DNA of 23,430 nucleotides, taken from positions 1-23,430 of IMG/VR virus record IMGVR_UViG_2675903330_000005; one strand, 5' to 3'. This document shows, one piece after another, positions 1,987-23,430 of the stretch; the stretch's first letter is position 1; every line of letters starts with the position of its first letter. The stretch comes from a virus. Its lineage: Duplodnaviria; Heunggongvirae; Uroviricota; Caudoviricetes. The position numbers and the translations under genes are program-made. The notes below the pieces were generated by a model. That model searched no databases. It saw only the letters and a list, made by a program, of their open reading frames with translations, and was not told the DNA's origin.

Positions 1987-2004
1987 TCCAAGTGAACTTT
2001 TATC

Positions 2005-2327: not shown

Positions 2328-2359
2328 TTCGATTCTGAAATACATCAGAGGCATTGACC

Positions 2360-2869: not shown

Positions 2870-2876
2870 GGTGCTT

Positions 2877-3382: not shown

Positions 3383-3449
3383 CCAACTAATGAAATTAAT
3401 GGCGTAAACCCGCCGGGCATCCCTTTATCTAAATTCAGGAGAATTGCTT

Positions 3450-7175: not shown

Positions 7176-7266
7176 TCACGTGGGTTAACAATTCGTGCTC
7201 TTAATAATACCAGGCATATCAGGCTGATGAACGTAAAAAACGTTTTACATCAGTAAGATTATTATA

Positions 7267-7286
7267 TACTGTAAATATAAACAGTG
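7267..7286. promoter_or_regulatory. Candidate LexA (SOS) box: TACTGTAAATATAAACAGTG (CTGT-N8-ACAG)
   Basis: Match to the LexA consensus TACTGT(AT)4ACAGTA core, overlapping a -10-like TATAAA/TATACT region about 45 bp upstream of a small ORF with a consensus SD. Confidence 0.55.
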
Positions 7287-7327
7287 GTTGTGCATACAGT
7301 GTTGCTTGTGGTGTCATAGGAGGAAAG

Positions 7328-7498
7328 ATGCAGGACTATTTTTTGGAGTCTTTGAAGCTCCAGCGCATTGATTTTTTTCTTAAGCTTGTGGCGGCTAGTG
7401 AGTGTAGTGATGAAGAGAAGGGGCTGGCTCTGCAGTGGGTTTCTGAGTTGACTGATGAGCTGATGGCGAGAATTCGCGCTCATGAATACAACCACTAG
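7328..7498 (+). CDS. Small 56-aa ORF downstream of the LexA box; candidate SOS-inducible Tum-like antirepressor or small regulator
   Basis: ATG preceded by a perfect AGGAGG SD at optimal spacing; not in the supplied ORF track (under 60 aa); translates to MQDYFLESLKLQRIDFFLKLVAASECSDEEKGLALQWVSELTDELMARIRAHEYNH. Confidence 0.35.
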   Translation: MQDYFLESLKLQRIDFFLKLVAASECSDEEKGLALQWVSELTDELMARIRAHEYNH

Positions 7499-7671
7499 AT
7501 GGATCTTCCCAGTAGTTTTTCGAAACTGAAAACAACCGAGTGAAAGTTACGACACTTGAGATTTTCACTTGGGTTATAATCAGAATACTTGTTTTCGTCC
7601 ACAAATGTACATGCCATGCATTAATGTGGTGATAGCTTTCAATTTTTACTAAATGGTTTCAATTGCTTCTT

Positions 7672-8217
7672 ATGAATCATGTAATGTTAGATATAGAAAC
7701 ATTGGATGTTGAAAAAACAGCTTATATCCTTTCAGTTGGTGCGGCTTTTTTCGTGCCGGAGACTGGCGAGATTGGTCCGGGTTTCTATCAAGTTATTTCG
7801 CTTGATCATGAACAAGCAGGCAGAACCATTGCCCCCTCTACTGTAAAGTGGTGGATGAATCAAAGTACTGAAGCTAAAAACGAAAATTTTGATGGCACTA
7901 AGGACCTTTTAGAGGTTCTGAATGAATTTGTGGCATTTATTCTTCATAATCGTACTGGCCGAGTAAAAGTGTGGGGAAACGGGAAAGAGTTTGACTGCAC
8001 GATCATGCATCATGCCCTGTTACAGGCGGGTCTGGATTGCCCATGGTCATTCAGAGATACTCTTGACGTTAGAACCATCTTAGCACTTGGTGAAAGCAAA
8101 GGAATTTTTTCTCATGCTGATAAAAATTTCACTGGCATTAGGCACACAGCATTCGATGATGTTTTATTTCAGATCGCACAGGTTTCTCACATCTATATGA
8201 ATTTAAATAAAAAATAA
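7672..8217 (+). CDS. DEDDh-type 3'-5' exonuclease (DnaQ-like fold), about 181 aa
   Basis: Exo I motif VMLDIETLD, Exo II-like ..VWGNGKEFDCTIM.., Exo III motif ..HTAFDDVLFQI..; first gene of the AT-rich cargo cassette; start codon uncertain (7663 TTG / 7672 ATG / 7684 ATG). Confidence 0.7.
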   Translation: MNHVMLDIETLDVEKTAYILSVGAAFFVPETGEIGPGFYQVISLDHEQAGRTIAPSTVKWWMNQSTEAKNENFDGTKDLLEVLNEFVAFILHNRTGRVKVWGNGKEFDCTIMHHALLQAGLDCPWSFRDTLDVRTILALGESKGIFSHADKNFTGIRHTAFDDVLFQIAQVSHIYMNLNKK

Positions 8218-8232
8218 ATATAGGACTTAGCT

Positions 8233-9144
8233 ATGGATTGCTTAGATGTAACCTATTGGACTGAGCTAGATGTTTTCGCACAGTATCCTGTTGGTGCTCG
8301 CTCTAAGGCATTGGTTATTTCCCCTGATGTTGCCCCCCATGGTATCAAAGCATCGTGGCCGTATCTTTTTAAGAGAAGCATTAAAAAATACCCAGATCAA
8401 TTTTGGTGTGAGATCGTTGCCTACAGGATTGGATTGCAGCTTGGTTTTAATGTCCCCAAAGCAGTTCCTTCGTTAAAGACTAATGATTTGGGGCATACGT
8501 TTTGCGGGGCCCTCATTGAGTGGTTTCATCATAAAGATTATGAGAAATTTGCTCCCGCTGGTGATTACTTTGTTCGAAGAGATCCAAATTTTGATCGTGA
8601 GAAAGGAGCTAAGCATTCCATTGAAGGGCTGAGGATTATCGCGAAAGCTCTTAAAGTTGACTATGTTGAGTGGTTGGAGAATATGGCTCTCTTTGACGCA
8701 GTAATAGGTAATACAGATAGACATCAAGAAAACTGGGGGTTTATCTTCTCACCTTTAACCAGCGAGTGTCAGCTTGCACCATTTTTCGATAATGGTACGA
8801 GCTTATGCTACGAACGTTTTCCGGAACATGTTGCTGATTGGACCGATCATAGACTCAGGGAGCATGTTAGCCGGGGAAAGCATCATTTGCGTAAGACTCT
8901 GGGCAAAGATGAGTATCAGAGATTAGGTCATTTAGAGTTAATCAAAGAACTTTGTGATAAAAAAGAAGAATTAAAACAGCGGGTAGCTGAAAGACTGGCT
9001 CGTTTGAACCATGACTTTTGGGACTCAACTTTTGCGGAGTTGACGGAAATAAACTGCCCTGTTCCGCTGACTAGAGAACGTGCTGCATGGATTGTTCGTG
9101 TAACAAACATGCGTATTGAACTGATTAAAGGTGTTACTTCATGA
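8233..9144 (+). CDS. HipA-family serine/threonine kinase, short HipT-like form lacking the HipA N-terminal subdomain
   Basis: P-loop-like ..VGARSKALVIS.. (cf. HipA VAGAQEKTAL), ..WCEIVAYRIGLQLGFNVP.. (cf. HipA YCLLLAKELGLNVP), catalytic loop ..VIGNTDRHQENWGF.. (cf. HipA IGATDGHAKNFS) and Mg-binding ..LAPFFDNGTS.. (cf. HipA LTPFYDIIS); 303 aa. Confidence 0.8.
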   Translation: MDCLDVTYWTELDVFAQYPVGARSKALVISPDVAPHGIKASWPYLFKRSIKKYPDQFWCEIVAYRIGLQLGFNVPKAVPSLKTNDLGHTFCGALIEWFHHKDYEKFAPAGDYFVRRDPNFDREKGAKHSIEGLRIIAKALKVDYVEWLENMALFDAVIGNTDRHQENWGFIFSPLTSECQLAPFFDNGTSLCYERFPEHVADWTDHRLREHVSRGKHHLRKTLGKDEYQRLGHLELIKELCDKKEELKQRVAERLARLNHDFWDSTFAELTEINCPVPLTRERAAWIVRVTNMRIELIKGVTS

Positions 9145-9845
9145 CTATCTTAATAGAAAAAATTCCCATGCCAAGTAGGCTCTTACTGACATGGCAACCG
9201 ACCGACGGCGGCTCTCGCTATGTCGTTGGTGAACTTCTTCAAGATGAGTCTGAAGGCTACGAGTTTAATTATCTTACGGATAGCAAAGATTTTGCTAAAG
9301 CTGTGGATAAAGGCTTTCACGGTTTTCCTGCTTTTGACATAAAAGTTACGACTCATCGCAAAGACGTTATGCAAACCTTTTCAAGAAGGTTACCCTCTAG
9401 GAAAAGAGAAGATTTTGCCGATTACTTGCTGACGTTTCGTCTTCCTGCTGATTTTAGAGAGAATGACTTCGTTTTGCTCGCTTGTACTGGCGGAAAAGTG
9501 GCTAGTGATGGTTTTTATTTTGTCCCAGACTTGTCTTCTATTCGGCCACCTTTTGATTATGTCATGGAGGTCGCCGGAACGAGACACATGATTAAGGAAG
9601 GGCGTCTAGCTCTTGACGAGATATCAATTGGTGATGAAGTCATATTGCGCAATGAAGATACCAATACTGTTGATCCGCTGGCCATATTAGTAACGAAAAA
9701 CGACAATCATCTAGGATATGTCAACAAGGCATTGTGCGCCGCATTACGAGATCTTGGTAAAAACCATGATATCAGTGGAGTGGTCGTACGTAAAAATGGC
9801 TCTTCGGATAGGCCTTTGATTTATGCAAAAGTATCTGTTAGATGA
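9141..9845 (+). CDS. Two-domain protein: N-terminal HipA-N-subdomain-like (HipS-like) region fused to a C-terminal HIRAN-like domain
   Basis: N-term ..LLLTWQPTDGGSRYVVGELLQDESEGYEFNY.. resembles the HipA N-terminus (..LVTWMNNQRVGELTKLANGAHTFKY..); C-term ..DEVILRNEDTNTVDPLAILVTKNDNHLGYVNKALCAAL.. fits the HIRAN pattern; start ATGA-overlaps the kinase stop. Confidence 0.55.
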   Translation: MTILIEKIPMPSRLLLTWQPTDGGSRYVVGELLQDESEGYEFNYLTDSKDFAKAVDKGFHGFPAFDIKVTTHRKDVMQTFSRRLPSRKREDFADYLLTFRLPADFRENDFVLLACTGGKVASDGFYFVPDLSSIRPPFDYVMEVAGTRHMIKEGRLALDEISIGDEVILRNEDTNTVDPLAILVTKNDNHLGYVNKALCAALRDLGKNHDISGVVVRKNGSSDRPLIYAKVSVR

Positions 9846-10013
9846 TGCATGTTTATTCATGCTTGCTAGTGATACTGCATTTATAGAGTCTGTCAACTAT
9901 GGAGATTTTTTCGTCTCATGCAACTACATTAAATTACCATTAAGTGGGTTGACGTTGCGGGGGAAGCATTACACGTCAGTATTGGTGCGTCTGAAGTGTC
10001 ATGCCGAAAAGGT

Positions 10014-10121
10014 ATGAAAAAGCCGCTTGGTAACATAACTATTCGCAATGATGTTGTAGGAAGCGAACTGGAAATGATAGCAATGGATGCTGTTGATGTA
10101 GTGTATGTCTATGCTGCATGA
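10014..10121 (+). CDS. Possible 35-aa micro-ORF (MKKPLGNITIRNDVVGSELEMIAMDAVDVVYVYAA) at the 3' end of the cassette
   Basis: ATG with an AAAGG SD-like sequence upstream; ends about 35 bp before the intrinsic terminator; weak support. Confidence 0.2.
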   Translation: MKKPLGNITIRNDVVGSELEMIAMDAVDVVYVYAA

Positions 10122-10155
10122 GTTTGCATGAACGTTTGAGGCTCGTTTTTGTTAA

Positions 10156-10181
10156 GGCCCGCCAGAACTGGCGGGCTTTTG
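10156..10181 (+). terminator. Rho-independent terminator closing the cargo cassette
   Basis: GC-rich inverted repeat GCCCGCC-agaact-GGCGGGC followed by TTTTG. Confidence 0.6.
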
Positions 10182-10225
10182 CTCATGTCATGCAGGTGCA
10201 TGAAAACCACTACATAAAGCGGGCA

Positions 10226-10244
10226 GGCGTGGCGGGGATACGAG
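10226..10244. other. Candidate cos site (19-nt cohesive end): GGCGTGGCGGGGATACGAG followed by CGCGCGC
   Basis: Matches the P2 cohesive end GGCGAGGCGGGGAAAGCAC at 14 of 19 positions and the 186 sequence as I recall it at about 15 of 19; lies between the post-gpA cargo region and gene Q, where cos sits in P2. Confidence 0.6.
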
Positions 10245-10305
10245 CGCGCGCAAACATGTTTACTTGCAATTAATGTAGATATATTCTGAAATTGATAACT
10301 TACAC

Positions 10306-10515
10306 ATGAAAGGAGACGTGAGAGTGGCAAAATATACACCGGGCCAGAAAGTAAAACATGCAACAGGACATGGTCCAATCATGGTAATTGATCACTACCA
10401 ATCGGCTACAATGGCAGTTTGTACGTGGTTTATTGGTGCTAAGAACCAGCGCGGAGTTTTTCATGAAGATACTCTAGTTTTATTTGTTCCAAAAGCTGAG
10501 AGTGATGATGAATGA
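10306..10515 (+). CDS. YodC/DUF2158-like small protein; start may be GTG at 10324 (63 aa)
   Basis: ..KYTPGQKVKHATGHGPIMVI....GVFHEDTLV.. resembles E. coli YodC (..GGPRMIV....EAFHETELV..); AGGAG SD 8 nt upstream of GTG 10324. Confidence 0.55.
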   Translation: MKGDVRVAKYTPGQKVKHATGHGPIMVIDHYQSATMAVCTWFIGAKNQRGVFHEDTLVLFVPKAESDDE

Positions 10516-10774
10516 TTCTCTGATAAAAATAGTTGACTGGATGGTTAATACCACTCGTTCTAATGGTGTGTTGTATCAGTCCGAGGTTGTTGAATTTCTA
10601 ATCAATGACTTTGGGGACGAGTTCATCAAAACTAATGAGAATGGTAATTACGCTATAAGCAGTACTGTGCTAGCAAATTTTAGAAAGGCTAGCAAAGACG
10701 ATATAGTTTGGGATCGTGAACAGTTAGCTTGGCGTTTACGCAATGAAAGCGATTTACCCGGACGGATGCAGTAG
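10508..10774 (+). CDS. Hypothetical 89-aa protein, overlapping the upstream small gene's stop
   Basis: ORF whose ATG (10505/10508) overlaps the stop of the YodC-like gene; no recognisable motif. Confidence 0.4.
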   Translation: MNDSLIKIVDWMVNTTRSNGVLYQSEVVEFLINDFGDEFIKTNENGNYAISSTVLANFRKASKDDIVWDREQLAWRLRNESDLPGRMQ

Positions 10775-10790
10775 AGATAATACAGAGAAT

Positions 10791-10831
10791 AGTGAACAAG
10801 CTGATAATTTCAACTTGTTCACTTCTTTTTT
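10791..10831. terminator. Hairpin terminator between the convergent small-gene pair and gene Q (possibly bidirectional)
   Basis: Perfect 10-bp inverted repeat AGTGAACAAG...CTTGTTCACT with 13-nt loop, followed by TCTTTTTT on the + strand. Confidence 0.5.
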
Positions 10832-11873
10832 ATGACTGATTATTTTCTAAGCCATAATATTCAAATTTGACTACCTCTTCATCTAACCATTCATTAATTT
10901 CGGCAATGCGTTTTTGTAAAGGCATCAGTTCATTCCGAACAAATACCCGGCTGGCTTTCTCCACATCCCCAAACCCCCCTACATTATTAGGCATAATCCC
11001 CATCATCTGCGGCGGCACTCGGTGTGCTGCCATCATGTCGTCCCGGCTCACGTTCTTGATATTCAGAAACTCATCCTTCGCCGCGACTTCTGACAACGGG
11101 ATGATCTGAAGCCCGTCCTTTTTGCCGTTAGGCGAGTACATAAACAGATTGCGGAAGTTACCTGGTCCTTTGGCGCTTTTCATCGCATTGCGGAGGTTGT
11201 TCACATCCTCCTGGTTTTGCGCGGCATCGGTCATGTACATGATGAAGCCTGCATGACTGCCGTTAATGTAATACTTTCGACGGAACAGCGTGGCGGACTC
11301 GTTGAGCAGGGCAGACGGAATGGCAGAAAGATAACCGGGCAGGCCGTAGATCTCCTGATTAATATCCGGTTCCATTAGATGAAAAATGCTGCCTTTCGTG
11401 AACTGATACGGCTGGGTTGTCATACCGTATTGCACAAACCAGTAGGTATCCAGGTCTAACCCGCGTCGGGTGTATTTTGCCAGCGCAGGCTCAAGGGCGA
11501 TAACTTCACCGAATCGGTTCGTGCGTTTCTCCAGGTAGGCGTTACCAAATACCAGATAGTCCTGCACAAAACGCGAAAAAGCCTGCTGGCTGAGCAGCGG
11601 GTGAGGGATATAGGTGCTGGTCAGAATGTTGCACTTTACTGCAATCGGTGAGCTGTGGTGAACGGCGGCGCGGAATGTTCGCGCCAGTCCGTCAAAACTT
11701 ACGGGTGGCTCATACCAGCGATCCGTCTGTACGCATTCCACATAGTCCAGCAGTTCGCGGCGGTCAAGTACTGGAATGGGATCACCGAAGCTGAATGCTT
11801 CGGCTGAAGTTTGGCTTTTATGCTTGAGCTGATTCGTCGCCGCAGCGCGGTTTTTCTTACTCTTTCCCATCAA
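10830..11873 (-). CDS. Q: Capsid portal protein gpQ
   Basis: 347 aa, leftward, ATGA-coupled to P; position and size match P2 Q. Confidence 0.9.
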   Translation of the reverse strand: MMGKSKKNRAAATNQLKHKSQTSAEAFSFGDPIPVLDRRELLDYVECVQTDRWYEPPVSFDGLARTFRAAVHHSSPIAVKCNILTSTYIPHPLLSQQAFSRFVQDYLVFGNAYLEKRTNRFGEVIALEPALAKYTRRGLDLDTYWFVQYGMTTQPYQFTKGSIFHLMEPDINQEIYGLPGYLSAIPSALLNESATLFRRKYYINGSHAGFIMYMTDAAQNQEDVNNLRNAMKSAKGPGNFRNLFMYSPNGKKDGLQIIPLSEVAAKDEFLNIKNVSRDDMMAAHRVPPQMMGIMPNNVGGFGDVEKASRVFVRNELMPLQKRIAEINEWLDEEVVKFEYYGLENNQS

Positions 11874-13636
11874 AAAATCTCCACAATATTGCTGGTATTG
11901 GCGGACTCGCCCTGCAGCGGTTCGTTAAACAGTGCGTGCATCGTTGCCCAGGCCAGATCGGCGTGGCTGGCTTCTTCGCTGCGGCTGGCTTCATAGGTCG
12001 GGCGGTTGCCACTGGCGGTGGTGGCGCGACGGATTGCCATAAATGACTGCGCTATGTCGGTGTGTCCGGCGTCAAACTCCAGACGACGGTGACTGATAAT
12101 GTCGTAGGCTTTGAGTACCAGGGCGTTTTTAACGTTGGGGTTGTAGACAAACTCCCGGACGGCAGGAAAGAACGCTTTCACGTTCTCGTAAACCCCGTGA
12201 CCGACACCTGTCGAGTCGATGCCGATATAGGTCACGTTGTACTGTTCGGTCAGTTTTTTGATGGCGTCAGCCTGGGCGCGGAAGTCCATCCCGCGCCACT
12301 GGTGACGCTCAAGAATGCGAAACTTACCGCCTGGCACGGCTGGCGGTGCCACCACCACGCATCCGGCGCTGTCGCCGTTCTGCGTACCTTTTGCCGGGTC
12401 ATAACCGATCCACACCTCGCGCCAGCCAAACGGGCGCAGGGCCAGTGCATGAAAGTCGGTCCAGACTTCCCAACTGTCCACCATGCACGCCTGCAGTTCG
12501 CTGAGCGGGAACACGGACGCGAGATCGTCCACGAACTCGCACATCAGCAGGTTCTGGTATTCGTCCGGGCTGTACTCCATGCGTAGCTGGTCGAGGTCGA
12601 ACAGGTTACAGCCGCCGCGCACCGCATCTTCCACGGTGACTATCTGGCGGTATTGCCCGTCTGCGCACAGCAGGCCGGGGGCCAGATTGCTGTGGGACAG
12701 GTCGATGTCCACCTTGTCGGCTTTGTTGCGTCCACGGTTGAACAGCGCACCGGACCAGAACGGATAAGCACTGTGTGTCAGGCTGGATGGCGTGGAAAAA
12801 TAGGTTTGTCGCCATTTTTTGTGAATAGCCATACCGGAAGCCACTTTGCGCAGCTCCTGAAATTTCGGTATCCAGAAATATTCATCCAGATACAGGTTGC
12901 CGTGATAACTCTGGGCAGTGCGGGCATTGGTGCCGAGGAAGTAAAGCGTGGCACCGTTAGGAAGCACCATCGGATCACCTTTCAGCTCCACCTCCACTTC
13001 TTTGGCGAAGTCGATGATGTACTGCTTAAAGACGTGGGCCTGTGCCTTGCTGGCGGAAAGGAAAATCTGGTTACGTCCGGTCAGCAGGGCGTCAATCAGG
13101 GCTTCACGGGCAAAATAGAAGGTTGCGCCGATCTGGCGTGACTTCAGCAGGTTGCGGATGCGGTTGGTTTTTCCGGCTTCCCACCAGTGGCGCTGGTAGT
13201 TGAACATGGAGGAATGGAAGATTTCTTCCAGCTTCTCAATCTGTTCATCGGTGAAAACATTCTTTTCCGGCTGACGGCGTGGGCCTTTGTTGCGGTTGGC
13301 GACGTTAGGGTTTAAGTCGGCTTCGTTGCCGCCATTGTTAAACTTGCCGATCCGCGCGTGGCGCTCCGACTGGCGCGCCAGCAGGTCAATCTCTTTGAAA
13401 TCTTTCCCTTCTTTGTGCTCCTTCATAATGAGCTGGCAGTAGCGTGCGGCGGTGGTGAGCTGCATCTGATCCAGCGGCCCATAGTCACCCCACTTGTCGC
13501 GTTTTTTCCAGCTGTGAACGGTTGCAACTTTCTCGCCCAGCATTTCAGCAATGCGGGCGACGCGGTATCCCTGAAAGTACAGCAGCATGGCCTGCCGACG
13601 GGGATCGAGATCTGCGGGTGTCAGTGTGGTGTTCAT
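11870..13636 (-). CDS. P: Terminase large (ATPase) subunit gpP
   Basis: 588 aa (P2 P is about 590 aa); divergent from the O-N-M-L operon as in P2. Confidence 0.9.
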   Translation of the reverse strand: MNTTLTPADLDPRRQAMLLYFQGYRVARIAEMLGEKVATVHSWKKRDKWGDYGPLDQMQLTTAARYCQLIMKEHKEGKDFKEIDLLARQSERHARIGKFNNGGNEADLNPNVANRNKGPRRQPEKNVFTDEQIEKLEEIFHSSMFNYQRHWWEAGKTNRIRNLLKSRQIGATFYFAREALIDALLTGRNQIFLSASKAQAHVFKQYIIDFAKEVEVELKGDPMVLPNGATLYFLGTNARTAQSYHGNLYLDEYFWIPKFQELRKVASGMAIHKKWRQTYFSTPSSLTHSAYPFWSGALFNRGRNKADKVDIDLSHSNLAPGLLCADGQYRQIVTVEDAVRGGCNLFDLDQLRMEYSPDEYQNLLMCEFVDDLASVFPLSELQACMVDSWEVWTDFHALALRPFGWREVWIGYDPAKGTQNGDSAGCVVVAPPAVPGGKFRILERHQWRGMDFRAQADAIKKLTEQYNVTYIGIDSTGVGHGVYENVKAFFPAVREFVYNPNVKNALVLKAYDIISHRRLEFDAGHTDIAQSFMAIRRATTASGNRPTYEASRSEEASHADLAWATMHALFNEPLQGESANTSNIVEIF

Positions 13637-13682
13637 GGCACAAACCTACAGCCTTGAATGAAGGCTTTCCCCGCCTGCGGTT

Positions 13683-13700
13683 TGTGTGGTTGTCGGTACA
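13683..13700. promoter_or_regulatory. Candidate Ogr-dependent late promoter element (TGT-N12-ACA) in the P/O divergent region
   Basis: TGTGTGGTTGTCGGTACA fits the TGT-N12-ACA dyad bound by Ogr/Delta-type activators, about 80-95 bp upstream of the O start. Confidence 0.45.
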
Positions 13701-13778
13701 AATACCGCGCATTGTTTCACTGCCCCCATCACCGCAACCATAAGGCTCCAGTAAGTTTTTTCTAACGGAGCACGGCTC

Positions 13779-14612
13779 ATGACAGTGAAAGCAAAGCGTT
13801 TTCGCATCGGGGTGGAAGGTGCCACCACCGACGGACGCGAAATCCAGCGTGAATGGCTGGAACAGATGGCAGCCAGCTACAACCCGGCGGTGTATACCGC
13901 GCTGATTAACCTTGAGCACATCAAGTCTTATCTGCCGGACAGCACCTTTAACCGCTACGGCAAGGTGACGGCGCTGTTTGCTGAAGAAATCACGGAAGGT
14001 CCGTTGGCAGGCAAGATGGCGCTGTATGCCGACGTTGAGCCAACGGAATCCCTGGTGGAACTGGTGAAAAAAGGCCAGAAATTATTCACCTCTATGGAAG
14101 TCAGCCCGAAGTTTGCTGATACGGGCAAAGCCTACCTGGTCGGCCTGGCTGCCACTGATGACCCTGCCAGTCTGGGCACTGAAATGCTGACATTCAGCGC
14201 CAGTGCAGCCCATAACCCGCTGGCAAACCGCAAGCAGAATCCCGCCAATCTCTTTACCGCCGCAGAGGAAACGGTGATCGAACTGGAAGAAATCCAGGAG
14301 GACAAGCCGTCCCTGTTTGCCCGCGTCACGGCGCTGTTCACCAAAAAAGAGCAGTCCGACGATGCCCGGTTCTCTGATGTGCATAAGGCCGTGGAGCTGG
14401 TCGCCACTGAGCAGCAAAACCTGAGCGCACGCACCGAAAAATCCCTGTCTGAGCAGGAAGAACGTCTGTCTGAGCTGGAGACTGCCCTGCAGGCACAGCA
14501 GACCGCCTTTAACGAACTGGTGAATAAGCTGAGTCATGAAGACAGCCGCCAGGACTACCGCCAGCGTGCAACAGGCGGTAACGCCCCCGCTGACACTCTG
14601 ACCAATTGCTGA
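13779..14612 (+). CDS. O: Capsid scaffolding protein gpO
   Basis: 277 aa; ..FRIGVEGATTDGREI..INLEHI..YLVGLAATDDPASLGTE.. matches the P2 O pattern. Confidence 0.85.
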   Translation: MTVKAKRFRIGVEGATTDGREIQREWLEQMAASYNPAVYTALINLEHIKSYLPDSTFNRYGKVTALFAEEITEGPLAGKMALYADVEPTESLVELVKKGQKLFTSMEVSPKFADTGKAYLVGLAATDDPASLGTEMLTFSASAAHNPLANRKQNPANLFTAAEETVIELEEIQEDKPSLFARVTALFTKKEQSDDARFSDVHKAVELVATEQQNLSARTEKSLSEQEERLSELETALQAQQTAFNELVNKLSHEDSRQDYRQRATGGNAPADTLTNC

Positions 14613-14628
14613 TGGAGCACAAAACCCG

Positions 14629-15687
14629 ATGAAGAAGAATACCCGCTTTGCTTTTAACGCTTACCTGCAGCAGCTGGCGCGTCTGAACGGTGTGGCCGTT
14701 GAAGAACTGTCCAGCAAGTTCACTGTAGAGCCGTCTGTGCAGCAGACGCTGGAAGATCAGATCCAGCAGTCCGCCGCATTCCTGACGCTGATTAACGTCA
14801 CGCCAGTGACTGAGCAGTCTGGTCAGTTGCTGGGGCTGGGTGTTGGCAGCACCATTGCCGGAACCACTGATACCACAGCTAAAGAGCGTGAGCCTGTCGA
14901 TCCGACGCTGATGGTCGATGTGGAATATAAATGCGAGCAGACTAACTTTGACACGGTGCTGACCTACGCGAAGCTGGACCTGTGGGCGAAGTTTCAGGAT
15001 TTCCAGGTGCGTATCCGTGACGCCATCGTAAAACGTCAGGCACTGGACCGCATCATGATCGGCTTTAACGGCGTGAAGCGTGCGAAAACCTCCAACCGTA
15101 GCGAAAGCCCGCTGCTGCAGGATGTGAACAAAGGCTGGCTGCAGAAAATCCGTGAAGATGCACCGGATCACGTCATGGGCAGCACCACCACGGGCGGTGA
15201 AACCACACCGGGTGCGGTGAAAGTCGGTAAAGGTGGCGAATATGCCAACCTGGACGCCGTGGTGATGGATGCCGTCAATGAGCTTATCGACGTGGTCTAC
15301 CAGGACGATGACGATCTGGTGGTGATTTGCGGTCGTGAACTGCTGTCTGACAAGTATTTCCCACTGGTCAACAAAGAGCAGGAAAACAGTGAAAAACTGG
15401 CTGCCGATATGATCATCAGCCAGAAACGCATGGGTGGCCTGCAGGCCGTGCGTGCGCCGTTCTTCCCGCCGAATGCGCTGCTGATCACCCGTCTGGATAA
15501 CCTGTCCATCTACTGGCAGGAAGACACCCGCCGCCGTTCAGTTATCGACAACCCGAAACGTGACCGGATTGAAAACTTTGAATCCGTTAACGAAGCCTAT
15601 GTGGTTGAGGATTACCGCTGCGCCGCACTGGTGGAAAACATCCAGATTGGCGATTTCAGCGCCGCTGCAGCAGAAGCCGGAGCGTAA
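14629..15687 (+). CDS. N: Major capsid protein gpN
   Basis: 352 aa; N-terminus ..TRFAFNAYLQQLARLNGV.. matches the P2 N start pattern; follows O. Confidence 0.9.
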   Translation: MKKNTRFAFNAYLQQLARLNGVAVEELSSKFTVEPSVQQTLEDQIQQSAAFLTLINVTPVTEQSGQLLGLGVGSTIAGTTDTTAKEREPVDPTLMVDVEYKCEQTNFDTVLTYAKLDLWAKFQDFQVRIRDAIVKRQALDRIMIGFNGVKRAKTSNRSESPLLQDVNKGWLQKIREDAPDHVMGSTTTGGETTPGAVKVGKGGEYANLDAVVMDAVNELIDVVYQDDDDLVVICGRELLSDKYFPLVNKEQENSEKLAADMIISQKRMGGLQAVRAPFFPPNALLITRLDNLSIYWQEDTRRRSVIDNPKRDRIENFESVNEAYVVEDYRCAALVENIQIGDFSAAAAEAGA

Positions 15688-15690
15688 CCC

Positions 15691-16341
15691 ATGAGCCTGA
15701 GTCCCGCACGGCAGCATCGCCTGCGCGTTCAGGCTGAACAGGCCGCCCGCGAGGGCGGCAGCGTTCGCCACGCGTCGGGCTATGACCTGATGCTGCTGCA
15801 ACTGGCGGAAGACCGCCGCCGTCTCAAGGGCGTTCAGTCCACGGTCAAAAAAGCGGAAATTAAGGTGGAACTGCTGCCGAAGTACGCCGCCTGGGCAGAG
15901 GGTGTCCTGACTGCCGGAGGCGCACAGCAGGATGACGTGCTGATGTACGTGATGCTGTGGCGCATTGATGCCGGAGATTATGCCGGGGCGCTGGAGATCG
16001 GGCGTCACGCCCTGCGTCATGGCTGGGTGATGCCGTTGGGTAACCGCAACGTGCAGACCGTGCTGGCAGAGGAAATGGCAGATGCAGCCCAGAGCGCAAT
16101 GCTTGCCGCCACCGGCTTTGATGCCGATCTGTTGCTGCAGACGCTGGAGCTGACAGACGGTATGGATATGCCGGACCAGTCACGGGCGCGTCTGCATAAA
16201 GCGATTGGCGCTGTTCTGAGTGAAAACAATCCGGCGTTCGCCCTTAATCATCTCAACCATGCGCTACAGCTCGATCCCCGCTGTGGCGTGAAAAAAGACA
16301 AACAGCAGCTGGAGCGCAGACTGCGCAATGACAGCCGCTGA
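15691..16341 (+). CDS. M: Terminase small (endonuclease) subunit gpM
   Basis: 216 aa, immediately after N as in P2. Confidence 0.8.
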   Translation: MSLSPARQHRLRVQAEQAAREGGSVRHASGYDLMLLQLAEDRRRLKGVQSTVKKAEIKVELLPKYAAWAEGVLTAGGAQQDDVLMYVMLWRIDAGDYAGALEIGRHALRHGWVMPLGNRNVQTVLAEEMADAAQSAMLAATGFDADLLLQTLELTDGMDMPDQSRARLHKAIGAVLSENNPAFALNHLNHALQLDPRCGVKKDKQQLERRLRNDSR

Positions 16342-16436
16342 CAGAACGTGCCCCCGCGCACGGGCGGCACGGGGTGGCGAAAGGCACTGCCACATCAAAA
16401 CCCCGTCCACCGCCCTCTATTTCAGGAGAAAGCAGC

Positions 16437-16901
16437 ATGAAGTTTGTTGCGCCAGAACAGGCACCGGAACAGGCGGAAATCATCAGGAATACGCCGTTCT
16501 GGCCTGATGTGGACCTGTCGGAGTTTCGCAGTGTCATGCGCACTGACGGCACGGTGACGCAGCCGCGTTTAAAGCAGGTTGCGCTGTCGGCAATTTCGGA
16601 GGTCAACGCAGAGCTGTATGAGTTTCGCAGACGTCAGCAGATGCTGGGGTATGCGTCGCTGGCTGAGATTCCGGCGGAACATCTGGACGGGAAAAGTGAG
16701 CGCATTCAGCACTATTTCAACGCGGTTTACTGCTGGGCACGCGCCATGCTCAACGAACGATACCAGGACTATGACGCCACGGCATCCGGTGTGAAGCGAG
16801 GCGAGGAACTGGCGGAATCCAGCGGTGATTTGTGGCGTGACGCCCGCTGGGCCATCAGCCGGGTGCAGGATGCGCCGCACTGCACAGTGGAGCTTATCTG
16901 A
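16437..16901 (+). CDS. L: Head completion/stabilisation protein gpL (start at internal ATG with CAGGAG SD)
   Basis: Position after M; stop overlaps X start; the track ORF's N-terminal extension lacks an SD. Confidence 0.75.
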   Translation: MKFVAPEQAPEQAEIIRNTPFWPDVDLSEFRSVMRTDGTVTQPRLKQVALSAISEVNAELYEFRRRQQMLGYASLAEIPAEHLDGKSERIQHYFNAVYCWARAMLNERYQDYDATASGVKRGEELAESSGDLWRDARWAISRVQDAPHCTVELI

Positions 16902-17104
16902 TGAAAGTGCGTGCGCATCAGTATGACACGGTGGACGCGCTTTGCTGGCGTCATTACGGGCGCACGCAGGGTGTCACGGAGCAGGTACTGAAGGCAAATC
17001 CGGGGCTTGCCGAATATGGCCCCTTTTTACCTCACGGGCTGCAGGTGGAGCTGCCGGACATTCCGACCACCACCACCGTGCAGACCGTCCAGCTATGGGA
17101 CTGA
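16901..17104 (+). CDS. X: Tail protein gpX (LysM-like)
   Basis: 67 aa, same length as P2 X; ..VDALCWRHYG.. motif. Confidence 0.85.
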   Translation: MKVRAHQYDTVDALCWRHYGRTQGVTEQVLKANPGLAEYGPFLPHGLQVELPDIPTTTTVQTVQLWD

Positions 17105-17107
17105 ATT

Positions 17108-17323
17108 ATGACGCTTGAGCGAATCAGCGCCTTTATCACGTACTGCATCGCCGTTGTGCTGGCCTGGCTGGGCGATTTGTCCATCAAGGATGCCTCAACG
17201 CTGGGCGGCCTGATGATTGGTGTGCTGATGCTGGCTATCAACTGGTACTACAAACACAAAGCCTACCAGCTTCTGCGCGACGGGCAGATCTCGCGGGAGG
17301 ACTATGAATCCATCAATCGTTAA
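17108..17323 (+). CDS. Y: Holin (P2 gpY position), 71 aa with two hydrophobic segments
   Basis: Membrane-spanning segments ..ISAFITYCIAVVLAWLG.. and ..LGGLMIGVLMLAINWYY.. and a charged C-terminus, directly upstream of the lysozyme. Confidence 0.65.
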   Translation: MTLERISAFITYCIAVVLAWLGDLSIKDASTLGGLMIGVLMLAINWYYKHKAYQLLRDGQISREDYESINR

Positions 17324-17930
17324 ACGCTGCCTTGTCGGGGCCGTGCTGGCTATTGCTGCCACGCTGCCGGGTTTTCAGCAGCTTCACACCTCCGTGGAGG
17401 GGCTGAAACTGATTGCCGATTACGAAGGCTGTCGTCTGCAGCCGTATCAGTGCAGCGCGGGTGTCTGGACCGACGGCATTGGTAATACATCTGGCGTCAT
17501 TCCAGGCAAAACCATTACGGAACGACAGGCAGCGGAAGGGCTGATCTCCAACGTGCTACGTGTGGAGCGGGCGCTGGAAAGATGTGTGAAGCAACAGCCG
17601 CCACAAAAGGTGTATGACTCGGTGGTGTCGTTTGCCTTCAACGTGGGAACGGGCAATGCCTGCAGTTCCACGCTGGTGAAATTACTCAATCAGCGGCGCT
17701 GGGCGGATGCGTGCCGACAGTTGCCGCGCTGGGTTTATGTAAAAGGTGTGTTTAATCAGGGGCTGGATAGGTGCTCTGCTCAGTCCGATAGGTCTTGTGG
17801 TTACTGCACTGGCGGGCGTGGCGCTGGTTGTCTGGAAATACTGGCAACCCATCACCGCATTTCTCGGTGGCGTGGTGGAAGGATTCAAAGCGGCGGCAGG
17901 TCCCATCAGTGCAGCGTTCGAACCGCTTAA
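17304..17930 (+). pseudogene. K: Endolysin gpK (lysozyme family), 3'-truncated at a deletion junction near 17760; ORF continues out of register into tape-measure DNA
   Basis: N-terminal roughly 150 aa look like a phage lysozyme (..EGLKLIADYEGCRLQPYQCSAGVWTDGIGNT..); the distal roughly 55 aa are low-complexity read-through overlapping the T fragment in another frame. Confidence 0.7.
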
Positions 17931-18687
17931 GCCCGTGTTCCAGTGGATTGGCGACAAAGTGCAGGCGCTGTGGGGCTGGTTTACTGATCTGCTGACGCCC
18001 GTTAAGTCGACCTCTGCCGAACTGCAGAGCGCAGCGGCAATGGGGCGGCGATTCGGGGAGGCACTGGCGGAAGGGCTGAATATGGTCATGCATCCGCTGG
18101 ACTCCCTGAAATCCGGCGTTTCCTGGTTGCTGGAGAAGCTCGGCATTGTCAGTAAAGAGGCCGCAAAGGCAAAACTGCCGGAAAGCGTGACGCGTCAGCA
18201 ACCTGCGACGGTGAATGCAGACGGTAAAGTGATGATGCCATCGGGTGGTTTTCCATCATGGGGATATGGCTTTGCGGGGATGTATGACAGCGGCGGGTAT
18301 ATCCCGCGCGGGCAGTTTGGCATCGTCGGTGAAAACGGGCCGGAAATTGTTAACGGCCCGGCAAATGTGACCAGCCGGAGAAATACAGCTGCACTGGCTG
18401 CCGTTGTTGCCGGAATGATGGGCGTTGCTGCCGCGCCAGCAGAGCTTCCACCGTTGCACCCTTTGGCACTTCCCGCGAAAGGTGGAGAAGCAATTGTGAG
18501 TCGCGCAGCCACTGTGCCGCTCGTTCAACGGATTGAGGCACCGACGCAGATCATCATTCAGACGCAGCCAGGACAAAGTGCGCAGGATATTGCGCGGGAG
18601 GTGGCACGCCAGCTTGATGAACGTGAACGCAGGCTGAAGGCAAAAGCCAGGAGTAACTACAGCGATCAGGGGGGATACGACGCATGA
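17746..18687 (+). pseudogene. T: Tape-measure protein gpT, C-terminal fragment only (about 310 of about 800 aa); 5' part removed by the deletion
   Basis: Hydrophobic TMP-like segment GWIGALLSPIGLVVTALAGVALVVW and C-terminal ..GGYIPRGQFGIVGENGPEIVNGP..; stop overlaps the U start; no credible start or SD. Confidence 0.8.
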
Positions 18688-19169
18688 TGATGGTGCTGGG
18701 ATTGTACGTGTTTATGCTGCGCACCGTTCCGTATCAGGAACTGCAGTATCAACGCAGCTGGCGACATGCGGCAAACAGTCGGGTAAACCGACGTCCGTCC
18801 ACGCAGTTTCTGGGACCGGAAAACGACATGCTGACGCTTTCCGGTGTTCTTATGCCGGAAATAACAGGCGGCAGGCTGTCGTTGCTGGCACTGGAGCAGA
18901 TGGCAGAACAGGGGAAAGCATGGCCCCTGATTGAAGGCAGCGGCACGATTTACGGCATGTATGTGATTGAGGGACTGAATCAGACTAAAACGGAGTTTTT
19001 CCGCGATGGTATGCCGCGCCGGATTGAGTTCACCCTGTCGCTCAAACGGGTGGATGAATCCCTGTCCGATATGTTCGGTGATCTCAGTGCGCAGCTGAAT
19101 AATTTGCAGGATACGACAACGTCTGCCTTAAGCGATATCAGTAAAACGGTGGGAGGGCTGCTGTCGTGA
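18684..19169 (+). CDS. U: Tail protein gpU
   Basis: 161 aa (P2 U is about 159 aa), between T and D. Confidence 0.85.
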   Translation: MMMVLGLYVFMLRTVPYQELQYQRSWRHAANSRVNRRPSTQFLGPENDMLTLSGVLMPEITGGRLSLLALEQMAEQGKAWPLIEGSGTIYGMYVIEGLNQTKTEFFRDGMPRRIEFTLSLKRVDESLSDMFGDLSAQLNNLQDTTTSALSDISKTVGGLLS

Positions 19170-20266
19170 ATTTCAGCTCTGAACTGCTTAACAAAGGCAA
19201 CAAAACTCCGGCATTCAGCATCAGTATTGAGGGTAAGGATATCACCACTGTGCTGGATAACCGCCTGATGAGTCTGACGCTGACGGACAATCGGGGCTTT
19301 GAAGCGGACCAGCTTGATCTGGAGCTGGATGACGCCGACGGAAAAATCGTGCTGCCGCGCCGTGGTGCGGTCATTACGCTGGCGTTGGGCTGGAAGGGGC
19401 AGTCGCTTTTCCCGAAAGGAGCATTCACGGTGGACGAGATTGAACACACTGGCGCACCGGACCGCCTGACTATCCGGGCGCGAAGTGCTGATTTTCGTGA
19501 AACCCTGAATACCCGCCGTGAAAAATCGTGGCACAAGACCACCGTTGGGGAAGTGGTGAAGGAAATAGCTGCGCGGCACAAACTGAAGATGGCATTGGGT
19601 GAAGACCTGTCGGATAAACCTGTGGAGCATATAGACCAGACCAATGAGAGTGACGGCAGTTTTCTGATGCGGCTGGCGCGCCAGTACGGTGCTATTGCGT
19701 CGGTGAAAAATGGCAATCTGTTATTCATCCGGCAGGGACAGGGTAAAAGCGCCAGCGGTAAACCACTACCGGTTATCACTATCACACGTAAGGACGGCGA
19801 CAGTCACCGCTTTACCCTGGCAGATCGCGGAGCCTACACGGGCGTAATTGCCAGCTGGTTGCATACCCGCGAACCCGCGAAGAAAGAAAGCACCACGGTG
19901 AAGCGTAAGCGCAGGACTAAGAAGCAGAAGAAAGAGCCGGAAGCGAAGCAGGGCGATTACCTGGTGGGTACAGATGAAAACGTGCTGGTACTTAATCGCA
20001 CCTATGCCAACCGGAGCAACGCCGAACGGGCGGCGAAAATGCAGTGGGAACGCCTGCAACGTGGCGTTGCGTCATTCTCGCTACAACTGGCAGAAGGTCG
20101 GGCGGATCTCTACACGGAAATGCCAGTGAAAGTCAGAGGCTTTAAACAGCCGATAGATGATGCGGAATGGACTATTACCACCCTGACGCATACTGTCAAT
20201 CCGGATAACGGTTTTACGACCAGTCTGGAGCTTGAAGTGAAGATTAATGATTTCGAAATGGAATGA
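19166..20266 (+). CDS. D: Tail protein gpD (late control gene D)
   Basis: 366 aa; GTG start with GGGAGGG SD; follows U and precedes ogr as in P2. Confidence 0.85.
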   Translation: MNFSSELLNKGNKTPAFSISIEGKDITTVLDNRLMSLTLTDNRGFEADQLDLELDDADGKIVLPRRGAVITLALGWKGQSLFPKGAFTVDEIEHTGAPDRLTIRARSADFRETLNTRREKSWHKTTVGEVVKEIAARHKLKMALGEDLSDKPVEHIDQTNESDGSFLMRLARQYGAIASVKNGNLLFIRQGQGKSASGKPLPVITITRKDGDSHRFTLADRGAYTGVIASWLHTREPAKKESTTVKRKRRTKKQKKEPEAKQGDYLVGTDENVLVLNRTYANRSNAERAAKMQWERLQRGVASFSLQLAEGRADLYTEMPVKVRGFKQPIDDAEWTITTLTHTVNPDNGFTTSLELEVKINDFEME

Positions 20267-20356
20267 TTCTTCGTAATAGAGAACTTTTAAGTTTTCAAAA
20301 TGGAATAATGCGGTATCATTATTGTGAATTTAGCAAAAATGGGGAGAACTCGAAAA

Positions 20357-20575
20357 ATGATGATTTGCCCACTGTGTGGAAGTGCCGCCCATACTCGCAG
20401 CAGTTTTCAGGTATCTTCATTGACCAAAGAGCGTTACAACCAGTGCCAGAACATTAACTGCAGCCATACTTTTGTTACCCATGAAACTTTTGTTCGTTCG
20501 ATTGCAACGCCAAAAGAGTCAAATCCGGTTCAGCCGCATCCAATGAAATCAGGACAGGTGGCGCTCTCTCTTTGA
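20357..20575 (+). CDS. ogr: Ogr/Delta-family zinc-finger late-gene transcription activator
   Basis: ..MICPLCGSAAHTRSS....KERYNQCQNINCSHTF.. matches the P2 Ogr CxxC-N22-CxxxxC zinc-finger pattern. Confidence 0.85.
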   Translation: MMICPLCGSAAHTRSSFQVSSLTKERYNQCQNINCSHTFVTHETFVRSIATPKESNPVQPHPMKSGQVALSL

Positions 20576-20652
20576 CTCTGCCGCCAATTTGTCGCCATCG
20601 TTAAAAAAAAGTGCTTCTAACATCATGATTTTAAACGGCATAAATTTCAGGC

Positions 20653-20698
20653 AACAAAAAACCCATCAACCTTGAACCGAAATGGCGGGGTTGATGGG
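20653..20698 (-). terminator. Rho-independent terminator read on the minus strand (likely the ybjL terminator)
   Basis: Perfect 10-bp inverted repeat CCCATCAACC / GGTTGATGGG with 17-nt loop, preceded on + by AACAAAAAA (a U-run on the minus strand). Confidence 0.5.
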
Positions 20699-20810
20699 CT
20701 CCACAAAATGGGGACATCAAAGAAAAGCAGTGGCACTAATTAAGACTGATGCCCTGCGGAAAAGTTCTGCGGTTGTGCAAAAAAATTTCATTTTCAGGGC
20801 AACTTCAGTT

Positions 20811-22496
20811 TTATCCTAATCCTGGCCATACCATGACGATGATTGTCCCTGCCAGCGTCAGCAGGACGTTGGCGATTGCATAGGTGCCCGCATAGCCCAG
20901 CGCCGGGATGTTACTGCGAGCTGTATCACTGATGATCTCCATTGCCGGCGCGCAGGTACGTGCGCCCATCATTGCGCCGAACAACAGCGCGCGGTTCATT
21001 CGCAATACATAAGCACCGAACAAGAAACAGATAACCACGGGCACCAGACTGACAATCAATCCGGCAATCAACATCTGACCGCCAATCGCGCCCAGGCCGT
21101 TATTAATACCGCTACCGGCGCTCAGACCAACGCCTGCCATAAACACCATCAAGCCGAACTCTTTCACCATGCTTAATGCACCCTGCGGAATGTAACCGAA
21201 GGTCGGGTGGTTAGCACGCATAAAGCCCAGCATAATTCCGGCGAATAACAACCCGGCAGCGTTCCCCATGCCGAAACTGAATGTGCTGAACTGGAAGGTG
21301 ATCATCCCGATCATCAGCCCAATAACAAAGAAGGCGCAGAATGCCAGCAGGTCAGTGACCTGGCTGTGAATCGAGATAAAGCCGATGCGATCGGCGATGG
21401 TTTTTACGCGGCGGGCATCGCCGCTGACTTGTAAAACGTCACCTTTGTTAAGCACGACGTTGTCATCTATCGGCATCTCAATCTGGCTACGAATGACGCG
21501 GTTAAGGAAGCAACCGTGATCGGTCAACTTCAGTTGTGCGAGACGTTTACCTACAGCGTTATGGTTTTTAACGACCACTTCTTCAGTGACGATACGCATG
21601 TCGAGAAGGTCACGATCGAAAACTTCTTTACCGTTACGGAAGCTGGGATCGAGTCGGGCATGGGCGTCGGGATAGCCTACCAACGCTATTTCATCGCCCA
21701 TTTGTAGCACGGCATCACCGTCTGGATTTGCCAGAATCCCGTTACGTCGAATACGTTCAATGTAGCAGCCGGTTTGTCGATAAATACCCAGTTCACGCAG
21801 ATTTTTGCCGTCGGTCCAGGCCACCAGTTCCGGGCCGACGCGATAGGCGCGGATCACCGGTAAATAAACCTTACGGTTGGCATCAGTGTCCAGGCCACGT
21901 TCGCGGGCGATTTGCTGGGCGCTGGTCTGTAAGTCCTGATGCTGCAATTTCGGCAAGTAACGCGCACCAACAATCAAACTCACCAGACCGATTAAATAGG
22001 TTAAGGCATACCCGAGGCTCAGATTATCCAGTGCCAGTGAGAGCTGCCTGCTTTCCATGCCGGAATGACGCAGTGTATCGCCAGCACCGACCAGAACCGG
22101 TGTCGACGTCATAGAGCCTGCTAACATACCGGCCGTCAGGCCAATATCCCAGCCAAACAGCTTACCTAACCCTAAGGCGATCACCAGCGCACTGCCAACC
22201 ATCACCAGTGCTAACATTAGGTAATTTTTCCCATCGCGAAAAAAAATGGAAAAAAAGTTCGGTCCGGCTTCGACCCCGACGCAGAAAATAAACAGCATAA
22301 AGCCAAGATTAAGCGCATCGGTGTTAATGCTGAAATGTTGTTGGCCTAATAACAGCGATACGACTAAAACGCCAATGGAATTACCCAGTTGGATCGAACC
22401 AAGTCGTAACTTTCCGAGACATAGCCCAAGCGCGAGGACCACAAATAATAACAGAATGTAATTCCCATTTAACAATTCGGCGACGTTTATATTCAC
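20811..22496 (-). CDS. ybjL: Putative transport protein YbjL (AAE-family transporter with central TrkA-C/RCK_C-like domains)
   Basis: 561-aa polytopic membrane protein with the duplicated-transporter architecture of E. coli YbjL; conserved neighbourhood with ybjM and grxA. Confidence 0.9.
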
Positions 22497-22765
22497 GGAG
22501 GCTAACTTCTTGTTTACTAGTAAGCTGTTGAAAGAAATGGTAATTTACGATAATGTTTTTTACCAGAATTCAGGGCGCAGATTCATTCAGCGCACCTAAA
22601 CGATAGTAAAGCAACAATATATTTTACTAGTGTAATCACATTAGGTATCAACGGCTATATGAATTGCGTTGGCCTATATTAGCATGGAATGCGAAGCGGC
22701 TTTATCTTACTGAACGCCACACTGGCGAAAAATGTGTTCGATAGACGCAGTGTCAGGAGGAACGA

Positions 22766-23143
22766 GTGAAACATAAACAACGTTGGGCGGGGGCAATCTG
22801 CTGTTTTGTCCTCTTCATTGTGGTGTGCCTTTTTCTGGCGACGCACATGAAAGGCGCTTTTCGGGCTGCCGGGCATCCTGAAATCGGCTTGCTATTTTTC
22901 ATTCTTCCTGGAGCAGTCGCCAGCTTCTTTTCACAGCGTAGAGAAGTCCTGAAACCTCTGTTTGGCGCAATGCTGGCGGCACCCTGTTCGATGCTCATTA
23001 TGCGGCTGTTTTTTTCACCGACGCGCTCATTCTGGCAAGAGCTGGCATGGTTACTAAGCGCGGTGTTCTGGTGTGCGCTGGGGGCACTGTGTTTCTTATT
23101 TATCAGTAGTTTGTTTAAACCACAGCACAGAAAAAATCAGTAA
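22766..23143 (+). CDS. ybjM: Inner membrane protein YbjM
   Basis: 125-aa hydrophobic protein between ybjL and grxA, as in E. coli K-12. Confidence 0.85.
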   Translation: MKHKQRWAGAICCFVLFIVVCLFLATHMKGAFRAAGHPEIGLLFFILPGAVASFFSQRREVLKPLFGAMLAAPCSMLIMRLFFSPTRSFWQELAWLLSAVFWCALGALCFLFISSLFKPQHRKNQ

Positions 23144-23172
23144 AGCCCTCAACGCGAGGGCTTGTCAGACGA

Positions 23173-23430
23173 TCAGGCGTCCAGATTTTCTTTCACCCAT
23201 GCAGCAAAATCGGTATAGCCGCCGATATGTTGCTGATCGACAAAAATCTGCGGCACGGTTTCTACGGGTTTACCTGCCTTTTGTTGTAGATCTTCTTTAG
23301 TGATCCCTTCCGCACGAATATCTACATACTGATACTGAAAATCATCGCGTTCATTGCTCAATTTCTCAGCCAGATCTTTTGCACGCACACAGTAAGGGCA
23401 ACCCGAACGACCAAAAATAACGGTTTGCAT
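23173..23430 (-). CDS. grxA: Glutaredoxin 1
   Basis: 85 aa with CPYC active site (MQTVIFGRSGCPYCVRAK..); start codon is the last three bases of the window. Confidence 0.95.
   Translation of the reverse strand: MQTVIFGRSGCPYCVRAKDLAEKLSNERDDFQYQYVDIRAEGITKEDLQQKAGKPVETVPQIFVDQQHIGGYTDFAAWVKENLDA

Follow-up and report, generated by a model that had tools for sequence, protein, structure and literature searches.

How did the endolysin gene K of a P2/186-like prophage come to be joined directly to the end of the tape-measure gene T, and at this particular nucleotide? The stretch of DNA examined here (the window, 23,430 nucleotides (nt) in length) is a segment of the Escherichia coli chromosome that carries a P2/186-like (Peduoviridae) prophage between rcdA and ybjL. 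A first-pass annotation had interpreted window positions 17304-18687 as the trace of a deletion that removed the whole tail/baseplate module and fused a truncated K to the 3' end of T. The present analysis supports this interpretation, the segment being very probably the scar of one real internal K-to-T deletion, and adds to it that the T-side breakpoint is a recurrent hotspot. The deletion itself is of an ordinary kind, whereas the T-side hotspot is unexpected.

The K–T breakpoint

The breakpoint was mapped by BLAST of the window against three intact references, namely the prophage of E. coli DS26-1 (NZ_CP035879; L004), Escherichia phage 500465-1 (NC_049342, Wadgaonvirus; L002) and Klebsiella phage KP12 (L001). 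Coordinates given below for T and for other prophage sites (e.g. 34574) follow the numbering of the DS26-1 prophage. The three relatives concordantly indicated a single breakpoint at 17768/17769: colinearity of the window with intact phage reaches 17769 and, after a jump, resumes from 17768, K codon 155/156 being followed out of frame by codon 720 of the 1025 codons of T. The scar is composed of the following features:

17304-17769, + strand: K', the 5' 466 nt (155 codons) of a signal-arrest-release (SAR) endolysin gene (Pfam Phage_lysozyme; colinear with K of 500465-1 and DS26-1).
17768-17769, no strand assigned: deletion junction, a TA common to both parents, whose T-side site is here called R1 (three-way alignment with the parental sites).
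17770-17930, + strand: out-of-frame tail of the K' open reading frame (ORF), corresponding to 53 codons of T in its +2 frame, with the stop at 17928-17930 (translation).
17770-18687, + strand: T', the tape-measure gene reduced to its last 305 of 1025 codons and the stop (alignments with KP12 and DS26-1).

The lysozyme gene of the relatives is 513 nt long and the left flank follows it to nt 466, the final 47 nt being gone, while the right flank begins at nt 2159 of the 3078-nt T gene, the first 2158 nt (70%) of which are lost. The earlier description of lysozyme-like sequence running to about 17760 and then continuing as the tape-measure C-terminus in another frame was therefore borne out, with the break at 17768/17769: K is truncated (155 of its 170 codons are kept) and the downstream ORF is the C-terminal 30% of T in a different frame. 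A full-length K, or a downstream ORF unrelated to the tape measure, was looked for in the alignments and neither was seen. Alignment to the intact relatives also confirmed that all genes lying between K and T in the P2 order are absent, and the missing DNA (11,257 nt with respect to DS26-1 and 12,307 nt with respect to phage 500465-1) comes close to the loss of 12-13 kilobases that had been estimated. Among the related strains compared, DS26-1 has the intact prophage, at rcdA/ybjL. As read from the DS26-1 and 500465-1 annotations, the deletion took the 3' end of K, lysA/lysB/lysC, R, S, V, W, J, I, H, the G/tail-fibre assembly genes, FI, FII, E/E' and 70% of T, leaving no complete tail/baseplate module (R, S, V, W, J, I, H, G, FI, FII, E, E', T). 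The missing interval of 500465-1 also contains an invertase, which would have been lost here only if the ancestor had one.

The microhomology found at the join is limited to 2 nt, the K parent reading GGCTGGA-TA-ACCGCC, the T parent GGTCTGT-TA-GGTGCTC and the window GGCTGGA-TA-GGTGCTC. There is no insertion sequence (IS), long repeat or recombinase site at the junction, nor are cix-like sites or sequences similar to the attachment (att) core present. Such features are those of a microhomology-mediated illegitimate deletion, in which joining across 2 nt linked the TA of K codon 155/156 to the TA of T codon 720.

A recurrent right endpoint in the tape-measure gene

When the 270-amino-acid (aa) ORF of T' was looked up, it was found downstream of many different left partners, with one common stop codon. 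Two of these rearrangements have exactly the right breakpoint of the window, namely an O–T' fusion (SRR26063366, left end at DS26-1 19499) and a deletion within T (T–T') that removes 518 nt (SRR28887610). In its +2 frame, T contains no stop over 226 codons (L004 34059-34736; window part 17770-17930) and encodes a Cys/Gly/Arg-rich peptide, so that every out-of-frame fusion in this region ends at one stop and gene callers report the 270-aa T' ORF. This property made it possible to search a protein collection with the out-of-frame T peptide, a search restricted to a single reading frame and to endpoints that lie to the left of about L004 34680.

The search brought up some 30 different fusion proteins of E. 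coli, each rare by itself, that carry the out-of-frame T tail, their left partners being O, N, M, L, K, lysA, S, V, H, FII, E and T. The tail starts at R1 (34574-34575, equivalent to window 17768-17769; CTGT-TA-GGTGC) in about 12 of them and at R3 (34562, a TA 12 nt upstream of R1; GCCA-TA-TCTGG) in about 10, with single cases at the TAs 34595 (R2), 34424 (R5), 34218 and 34645. All six right endpoints mapped in T between 34218 and 34645 (R1-R6) lie at a TA, whereas eight equally detectable TAs of the same phase, at 34229-34514, are hardly or never used, 34424 (R5) excepted.

Junctions were also recovered at the DNA level, comprising FII–R1, O–R3 and V–R3 as well as K(5')–R1, T–R1 and FI–R3. 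A frame-independent pattern search of IMG/VR ('not-T + TAGGTGCTC...') returned Q–R1 twice and CII–R1 once, and two complete genomes contributed H–R2 (strain AHB21) and P–R1, the latter in a prophage that occupies a different place in the chromosome of strain F1005. In total, related prophages of E. coli show more than 25 different deletions that terminate on the right at R1, at R3 or at one of the TAs 34595, 34218 and 34424 and that begin on the left in CII, Q, P, O, N, M, K, lysA, V, H, FI, FII, E and T.

A second frame-independent sample from IMG/VR consisted of 119 loci chosen solely by a 33-mer 100 nt downstream. It contained 19 T-truncating rearrangements, of which five had their endpoint at R1, two at 34424 and one each at R3 and 34218. 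When all loci were gone through systematically, 42 deletion junctions were obtained, about half of them at a TA, along with frequent reuse of sites. Those reused in different pairings are CII 5570, Q 16882, P 18108, O 19499, X 22413, V 25680, H 27980, FI 30582, FII 31701, T 32361 and R1-R5, serving as left end in some cases and as right end in others. If breakage were uniform, less than one pair of endpoints should coincide, and dozens were seen. Judged from these sequence comparisons, R1 is a strongly preferred right endpoint of deletions in P2-like prophages, and the hotspot is real but mechanistically unexplained. For the event in the window, the most likely origin would be a break or template switch of the kind that recurs at R1, with joining to another TA on its left.

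Several of the decayed prophages hold two to three separate deletions or inversions each. The inverted segments found in related defective prophages affect the N-M region, the tail-fibre assembly gene and T/U (L018 3193-4929, L019 3906-4929, L016 3123-3295 and L027). Separately, a RefSeq 'oxidoreductase' at 2323-3012 of locus L143 (NZ_OY754353.1) turned out to be a truncated terminase P fragment fused at R1 to T', the misannotation being due to the P–R1 fusion.

Reality and origin of the K–T deletion

The exact 208-aa K'–T chimera is encoded in three assemblies (NCBI GCA_001284305.1, Logan ERR134555 and Logan SRR6072361), and a 98%-identical variant with the same junction in four others (SRR25337974, SRR8313119, SRR13318464 and ERZ27246519). 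The 90% protein cluster of the chimera holds six sequence variants, and about nine contigs with the K–T architecture were found in a collection of 15 billion proteins. NCBI contig CXZM01000012.1 (GCA_001284305.1) is 100% identical to the window over the 16 kb retrieved (window 7304-23430), as is the Logan assembly of ERR134555 over 7304-19501. The small plasmid p13P477T-6, which at first sight resembles a K–T junction, was rejected, being an intact phage whose assembly is poor. Among the carriers three haplotypes can be distinguished, which differ in single-nucleotide polymorphisms (SNPs) from 33 nt to the left and from 137-280 nt to the right of the junction:

Haplotype 1 (window type): HipA/HIRAN cargo, no second lesion.
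Haplotype 2 (SRR6072361): KAP-NTPase cargo, a dam::X deletion and a 317-nt deletion in D.
Haplotype 3 (SRR25337974 group): Cap4-nuclease cargo and a P–Y deletion.

These observations bear first on the possibility of an assembly artefact, that is, of a contig wrongly joining K to T while the prophage of the isolate is intact. Although the junction is known only from short-read drafts and is absent from all complete genomes searched, such an artefact is extremely unlikely. The 2 nt shared by the parents are too few for a de Bruijn or overlap graph to collapse, and therefore an assembler cannot have merged both sides. Moreover, at least six read sets, assembled through different pipelines, yielded this junction, with differing flanking SNPs and extra deletions and in three haplotypes, meaning that the deletion is real.

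The same haplotypes could alternatively descend from one old K–T deletion that was inherited and shuffled among backgrounds by homologous recombination, without recurrence. All K–R1 carriers are indeed located at rcdA/ybjL and are identical across 17736-17904 around the junction, and P2-like phages are highly mosaic. However, cargo and extra deletions differ between the haplotypes, and since these diverge so near the scar, a single origin needs crossovers very close by in each lineage. In addition, R1 recurs with more than 15 left partners besides K, which makes recurrence the simpler reading and a single old deletion rather unlikely, if still to be reckoned with.

Some points weigh against viewing the scar as a real deletion ending at a recurrent hotspot. 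The exact K–T junction was found in none of 5,426 complete E. coli genomes, GTDB species representatives or IMG/VR, and must therefore be rare; the conclusion that it is probably no mis-assembly was drawn from assembled contigs rather than raw reads; and the K–T deletion either arose more than once or moved between prophage backgrounds. The apparent hotspot could, furthermore, be partly shaped by case-finding or by selection, for instance if retaining more of T were harmful. Nevertheless, selection and case-finding do not explain the identity of the endpoints at the nucleotide level.

Candidate causes of the hotspot

If the recurrence at R1 is accepted, a tentative proposal, to which we would give somewhat less than an even chance, is that R1 and a few other TA sites are targeted by a sequence-preferring break-and-rejoin process that repeatedly and independently grounds P2-like prophages in natural E. 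coli, the K–T deletion being one recurrent product. A slightly less probable reading attributes the cutting or recombination of R1, R3 and the other reused TAs to an enzyme with sequence preference, instead of random slippage, for which a transposase-like or restriction-like nuclease, a topoisomerase, or a phage or defence nuclease may be considered. The reuse of the same sites as left or right partners in many combinations speaks for an enzyme, as do the location of R1-R6 at TAs while eight equally detectable ones are hardly used, the presence of two to three deletions or inversions together in several prophages, and a weak enrichment of CC after the TA. However, about half of the junctions are not at a TA, the inversion junctions of decayed prophages are not TA-TA, and no convincing extended motif was found at the reused sites. 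What the motif search did reveal was G+C-rich flanks and the weak CC excess, which survived a phase-matched control. A 'TAACC' motif seen at the first three left sites vanished when more sites were included and was largely explained by codon usage (NNT-ACC).

Particular systems could be confronted with the site more directly. Serine invertases of the Cin/Hin/Gin type act on TTCTC..AAACC-NN-GGTTT..GAGAA-like sites with matching central dinucleotides, and phage invertase quasi-sites were rejected: the natural sites of the P2-like family have a TT/AA centre and unrelated arms with a different half-site, the K and T sites agree with the natural right half-site in no more than 3 of its 12 positions (R1 3/12), and the product lacks the expected ACC. 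Action of Int at a secondary att site was likewise rejected, the att core being unrelated to R1. No second copy of the R1 sequence (e.g. at ori) was found in the window. CRISPR-Cas3 self-targeting would require a spacer matching the fixed deletion end. No spacer-length (about 32 nt) match outside T was found in the 5,426 complete genomes using exact 28-mers and the best match per genome, for which reason a spacer in a T-carrying genome could be missed; the weakest match was a truncated T. The prophage contains no Chi sites that could support protection of one end, and R1 presents no strong inverted repeat or stable hairpin (DNA fold z-score of 0.2).

Quinolone-gyrase prefers cutting before G (PMC6379681), a preference that fits R2 but not R1, R3 or the left sites. 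Rpn nucleases, having no sequence specificity (PMC5350276), are not supported as the cause of R1 either. A search of the literature for TA-bounded deletions or P2 remnants yielded nothing relevant.

The K and T remnants

K' is homologous to P1 Lyz (1XJT) and P21 R (3HDE). The Pfam family PF00959 (Phage_lysozyme) matches its residues 39-156 with an E-value of 3.8e-36 over profile positions 2-120 of 125, and the GH24 lysozyme domain with its catalytic region is thus present. The fold is nevertheless incomplete, as K' is devoid of the conserved C-terminal helix (GLxxRRxxE...). Its own sequence ends after 'GLD', with profile positions 121-125 and the residues aligned to Lyz 166-181 replaced out of frame, and the 'RRxxE' helix that is gone (NRRAREMAWCLQG) aligns with P1 Lyz 1XJT. 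A full-length K relative aligns with this structure through residue 168 (E 2.7e-25). The K and T frames being different, K' reads into 53 out-of-frame codons up to the stop at 17928-17930, giving a chimeric protein of 208 aa. Loss of the conserved C-terminal helix makes loss of K' function likely.

T' returned no family in a Pfam search, and was assigned to the tape measure because of its 99.9% nucleotide identity to the annotated 3' end of KP12 T; identity to DS26-1 T is 97.6%. It has no credible start of its own at the junction, gene callers beginning at a GTG at 17875 (270 aa). With 305 of 1025 codons left and E/E' deleted, it retains neither the PhageMin_Tail region nor the N-terminus made with the E/E' chaperones, and its function is likely lost as well. 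For database users, this means that the deposited CTR77156.1 ('glycoside hydrolase') and CTR77178.1 ('tail tape measure protein', corresponding to T') are fragments.

The remaining prophage and its capacities

Outside the scar, the elements relevant to the fate of the prophage are as follows:

1-20666, no strand assigned: P2/186-like prophage from int to ogr and the attR core, its left end cut by the window (colinear with the DS26-1 prophage).
17108-17323, + strand: holin Y (HP1-family), intact, directly upstream of K' (Pfam PF16080; 100% amino-acid identity to DS26-1).
18684-19169, + strand: gpU, intact, its start overlapping the T stop (Pfam PF06995).
19166-20266, + strand: gpD, intact (Pfam PF05954).
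20357-20575, + strand: ogr late-gene activator, intact (Pfam PF04606).

The gene order int-CI-(cox/apl)-CII...A-cargo-Q-P-O-N-M-L-X-Y-K...T-U-D-ogr, with family-specific domains (Pfam; NC_049342 and DS26-1), is that of P2/186-like phages. The prophage is colinear with that of DS26-1 at 96.8-99.9% identity. The att core AACAAAAAACCCAT lies at 20653-20666 (attR), and an identical 14-mer follows rcdA in DS26-1, attL being outside the window. The right end of the window (ybjL, ybjM, grxA) is found at 95% identity or more in 5,420 of the 5,426 complete E. coli genomes.

The reading frames of the other 28 phage genes are all intact, with 96-100% amino-acid identity to DS26-1, and the alignment of the two prophages is gapless except for the K–T deletion and an ISEc47 present only in DS26-1. 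The prophage has therefore suffered one clean lesion. In an otherwise intact element this suggests a recent event, and places the prophage at a very early (first) stage of decay. With int, CI, A, Q, P, O, N, M and L intact, repression, excision and replication of the element are probably still possible, as are the making and filling of heads. On the other hand, the element would be unable to make tails and is without spanins, lysA and a complete endolysin, and would therefore be grounded as a non-infectious prophage. In the four-operon layout of P2, the late promoters P_V and P_F stand within the stretch lost here. Their loss with the deleted segment would leave T'-U-D at the end of the P_O (head/lysis) transcript, reachable only by read-through from that operon. 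As far as its gene content can tell, the element is a defective P2/186-like derivative and no viable member of the group.

It could be asked whether the loss of tails is instead a way of life, with a functional tail-less element spreading on tails borrowed from a co-resident P2-like helper, in the style of capsid-forming satellites. Genes for head, terminase, replication, integration and regulation are all undamaged, ogr, U and D have been retained, and two P2-like prophages often reside in one E. coli genome (the K/T probe has a median of two places per genome). A satellite would, however, be expected to present a conserved and widespread tail-less architecture. That of the window is rare (the nine or so contigs mentioned above) and absent from IMG/VR; the other K–R1 carriers are further decayed and also without head genes; and what the junction leaves behind are frameshifted fragments of genes and not a tidy module, the lysis genes being gone. 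A satellite lifestyle is thus very unlikely, and a grounded prophage better describes the element.

Some other properties of the prophage were noted. The variable A-Q hotspot harbours a cargo module (7684-9845) encoding an Rv2179c-like 3'-5' exonuclease, a HipA_C-like kinase and a HIRAN-domain protein, the latter two matching the PADLOC candidate defence system PDC-M03A/B (E about 1e-36). In DS26-1, ISEc47 (IS66-family) lies beside this module (L004 13287-15824); it is not in the window (10276-10286), where the alignment shows an 11-nt overlap of its flanks. On either side of the scar the closest relative is different, identity to Klebsiella phage KP12 being 96.1% on the left (1-17769) and 99.9% on the right (17768-20666), while window 1-10286 is 99.85% identical to DS26-1. 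This corresponds to the usual mosaicism of P2-like phages.

Comparison with known systems

Taken by itself, the K–T deletion represents an everyday step of prophage decay, and its recognition tells annotators that the prophage is non-infectious. The usual view of prophage inactivation is one of random deletion filtered by selection, with which dozens of independent deletions ending at one nucleotide, mostly at a TA, in one phage family stand in contrast. Should the hotspot reflect a specific mechanism, it would offer a testable route by which E. coli disarms P2-like prophages, and R1-type scars would then be a marker for counting inactivation events in population genomics.

The closest intact elements, those of DS26-1 and 500465-1, have the gene order of the window and are 96-99.9% identical to it in nucleotide sequence on both sides of the scar, DS26-1 sharing also the integration site and cargo genes; unlike the window, both possess the full block from the K 3' end to T (11.3-12.3 kb). 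With respect to its endolysin remnant, K' resembles P1 Lyz (1XJT/1XJU) and P21 R (3HDE/3HDF) in its N-terminal hydrophobic SAR-like segment and Cys pattern, but differs from P1 Lyz in that the last 15 residues (NRRAREMAWCLQGAN, aligned to the Lyz C-terminal helix) are replaced by 53 unrelated ones.

E. coli K-12 holds, as reportedly described by Barreiro and Haggard-Ljungquist in 1992, a cryptic ogrK/D' remnant at P2 attachment site II. The window is similar to such cryptic P2 remnants, and to decaying defective prophages at large, in the survival of the attR-side genes (T'/U/D/ogr) and the loss of internal or left genes, and dissimilar in having a single internal deletion with the other genes intact instead of being a small remnant. 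Finally, the junction, with just 2 nt shared, resembles RecA-independent microhomology deletions of E. coli. The classical slipped-mispairing hotspots consist of longer, G+C-rich repeats. In the prophages studied here, unlike in those E. coli deletions, one nucleotide position in T, with TA as the nearly constant microhomology, has been reused by dozens of independent events.

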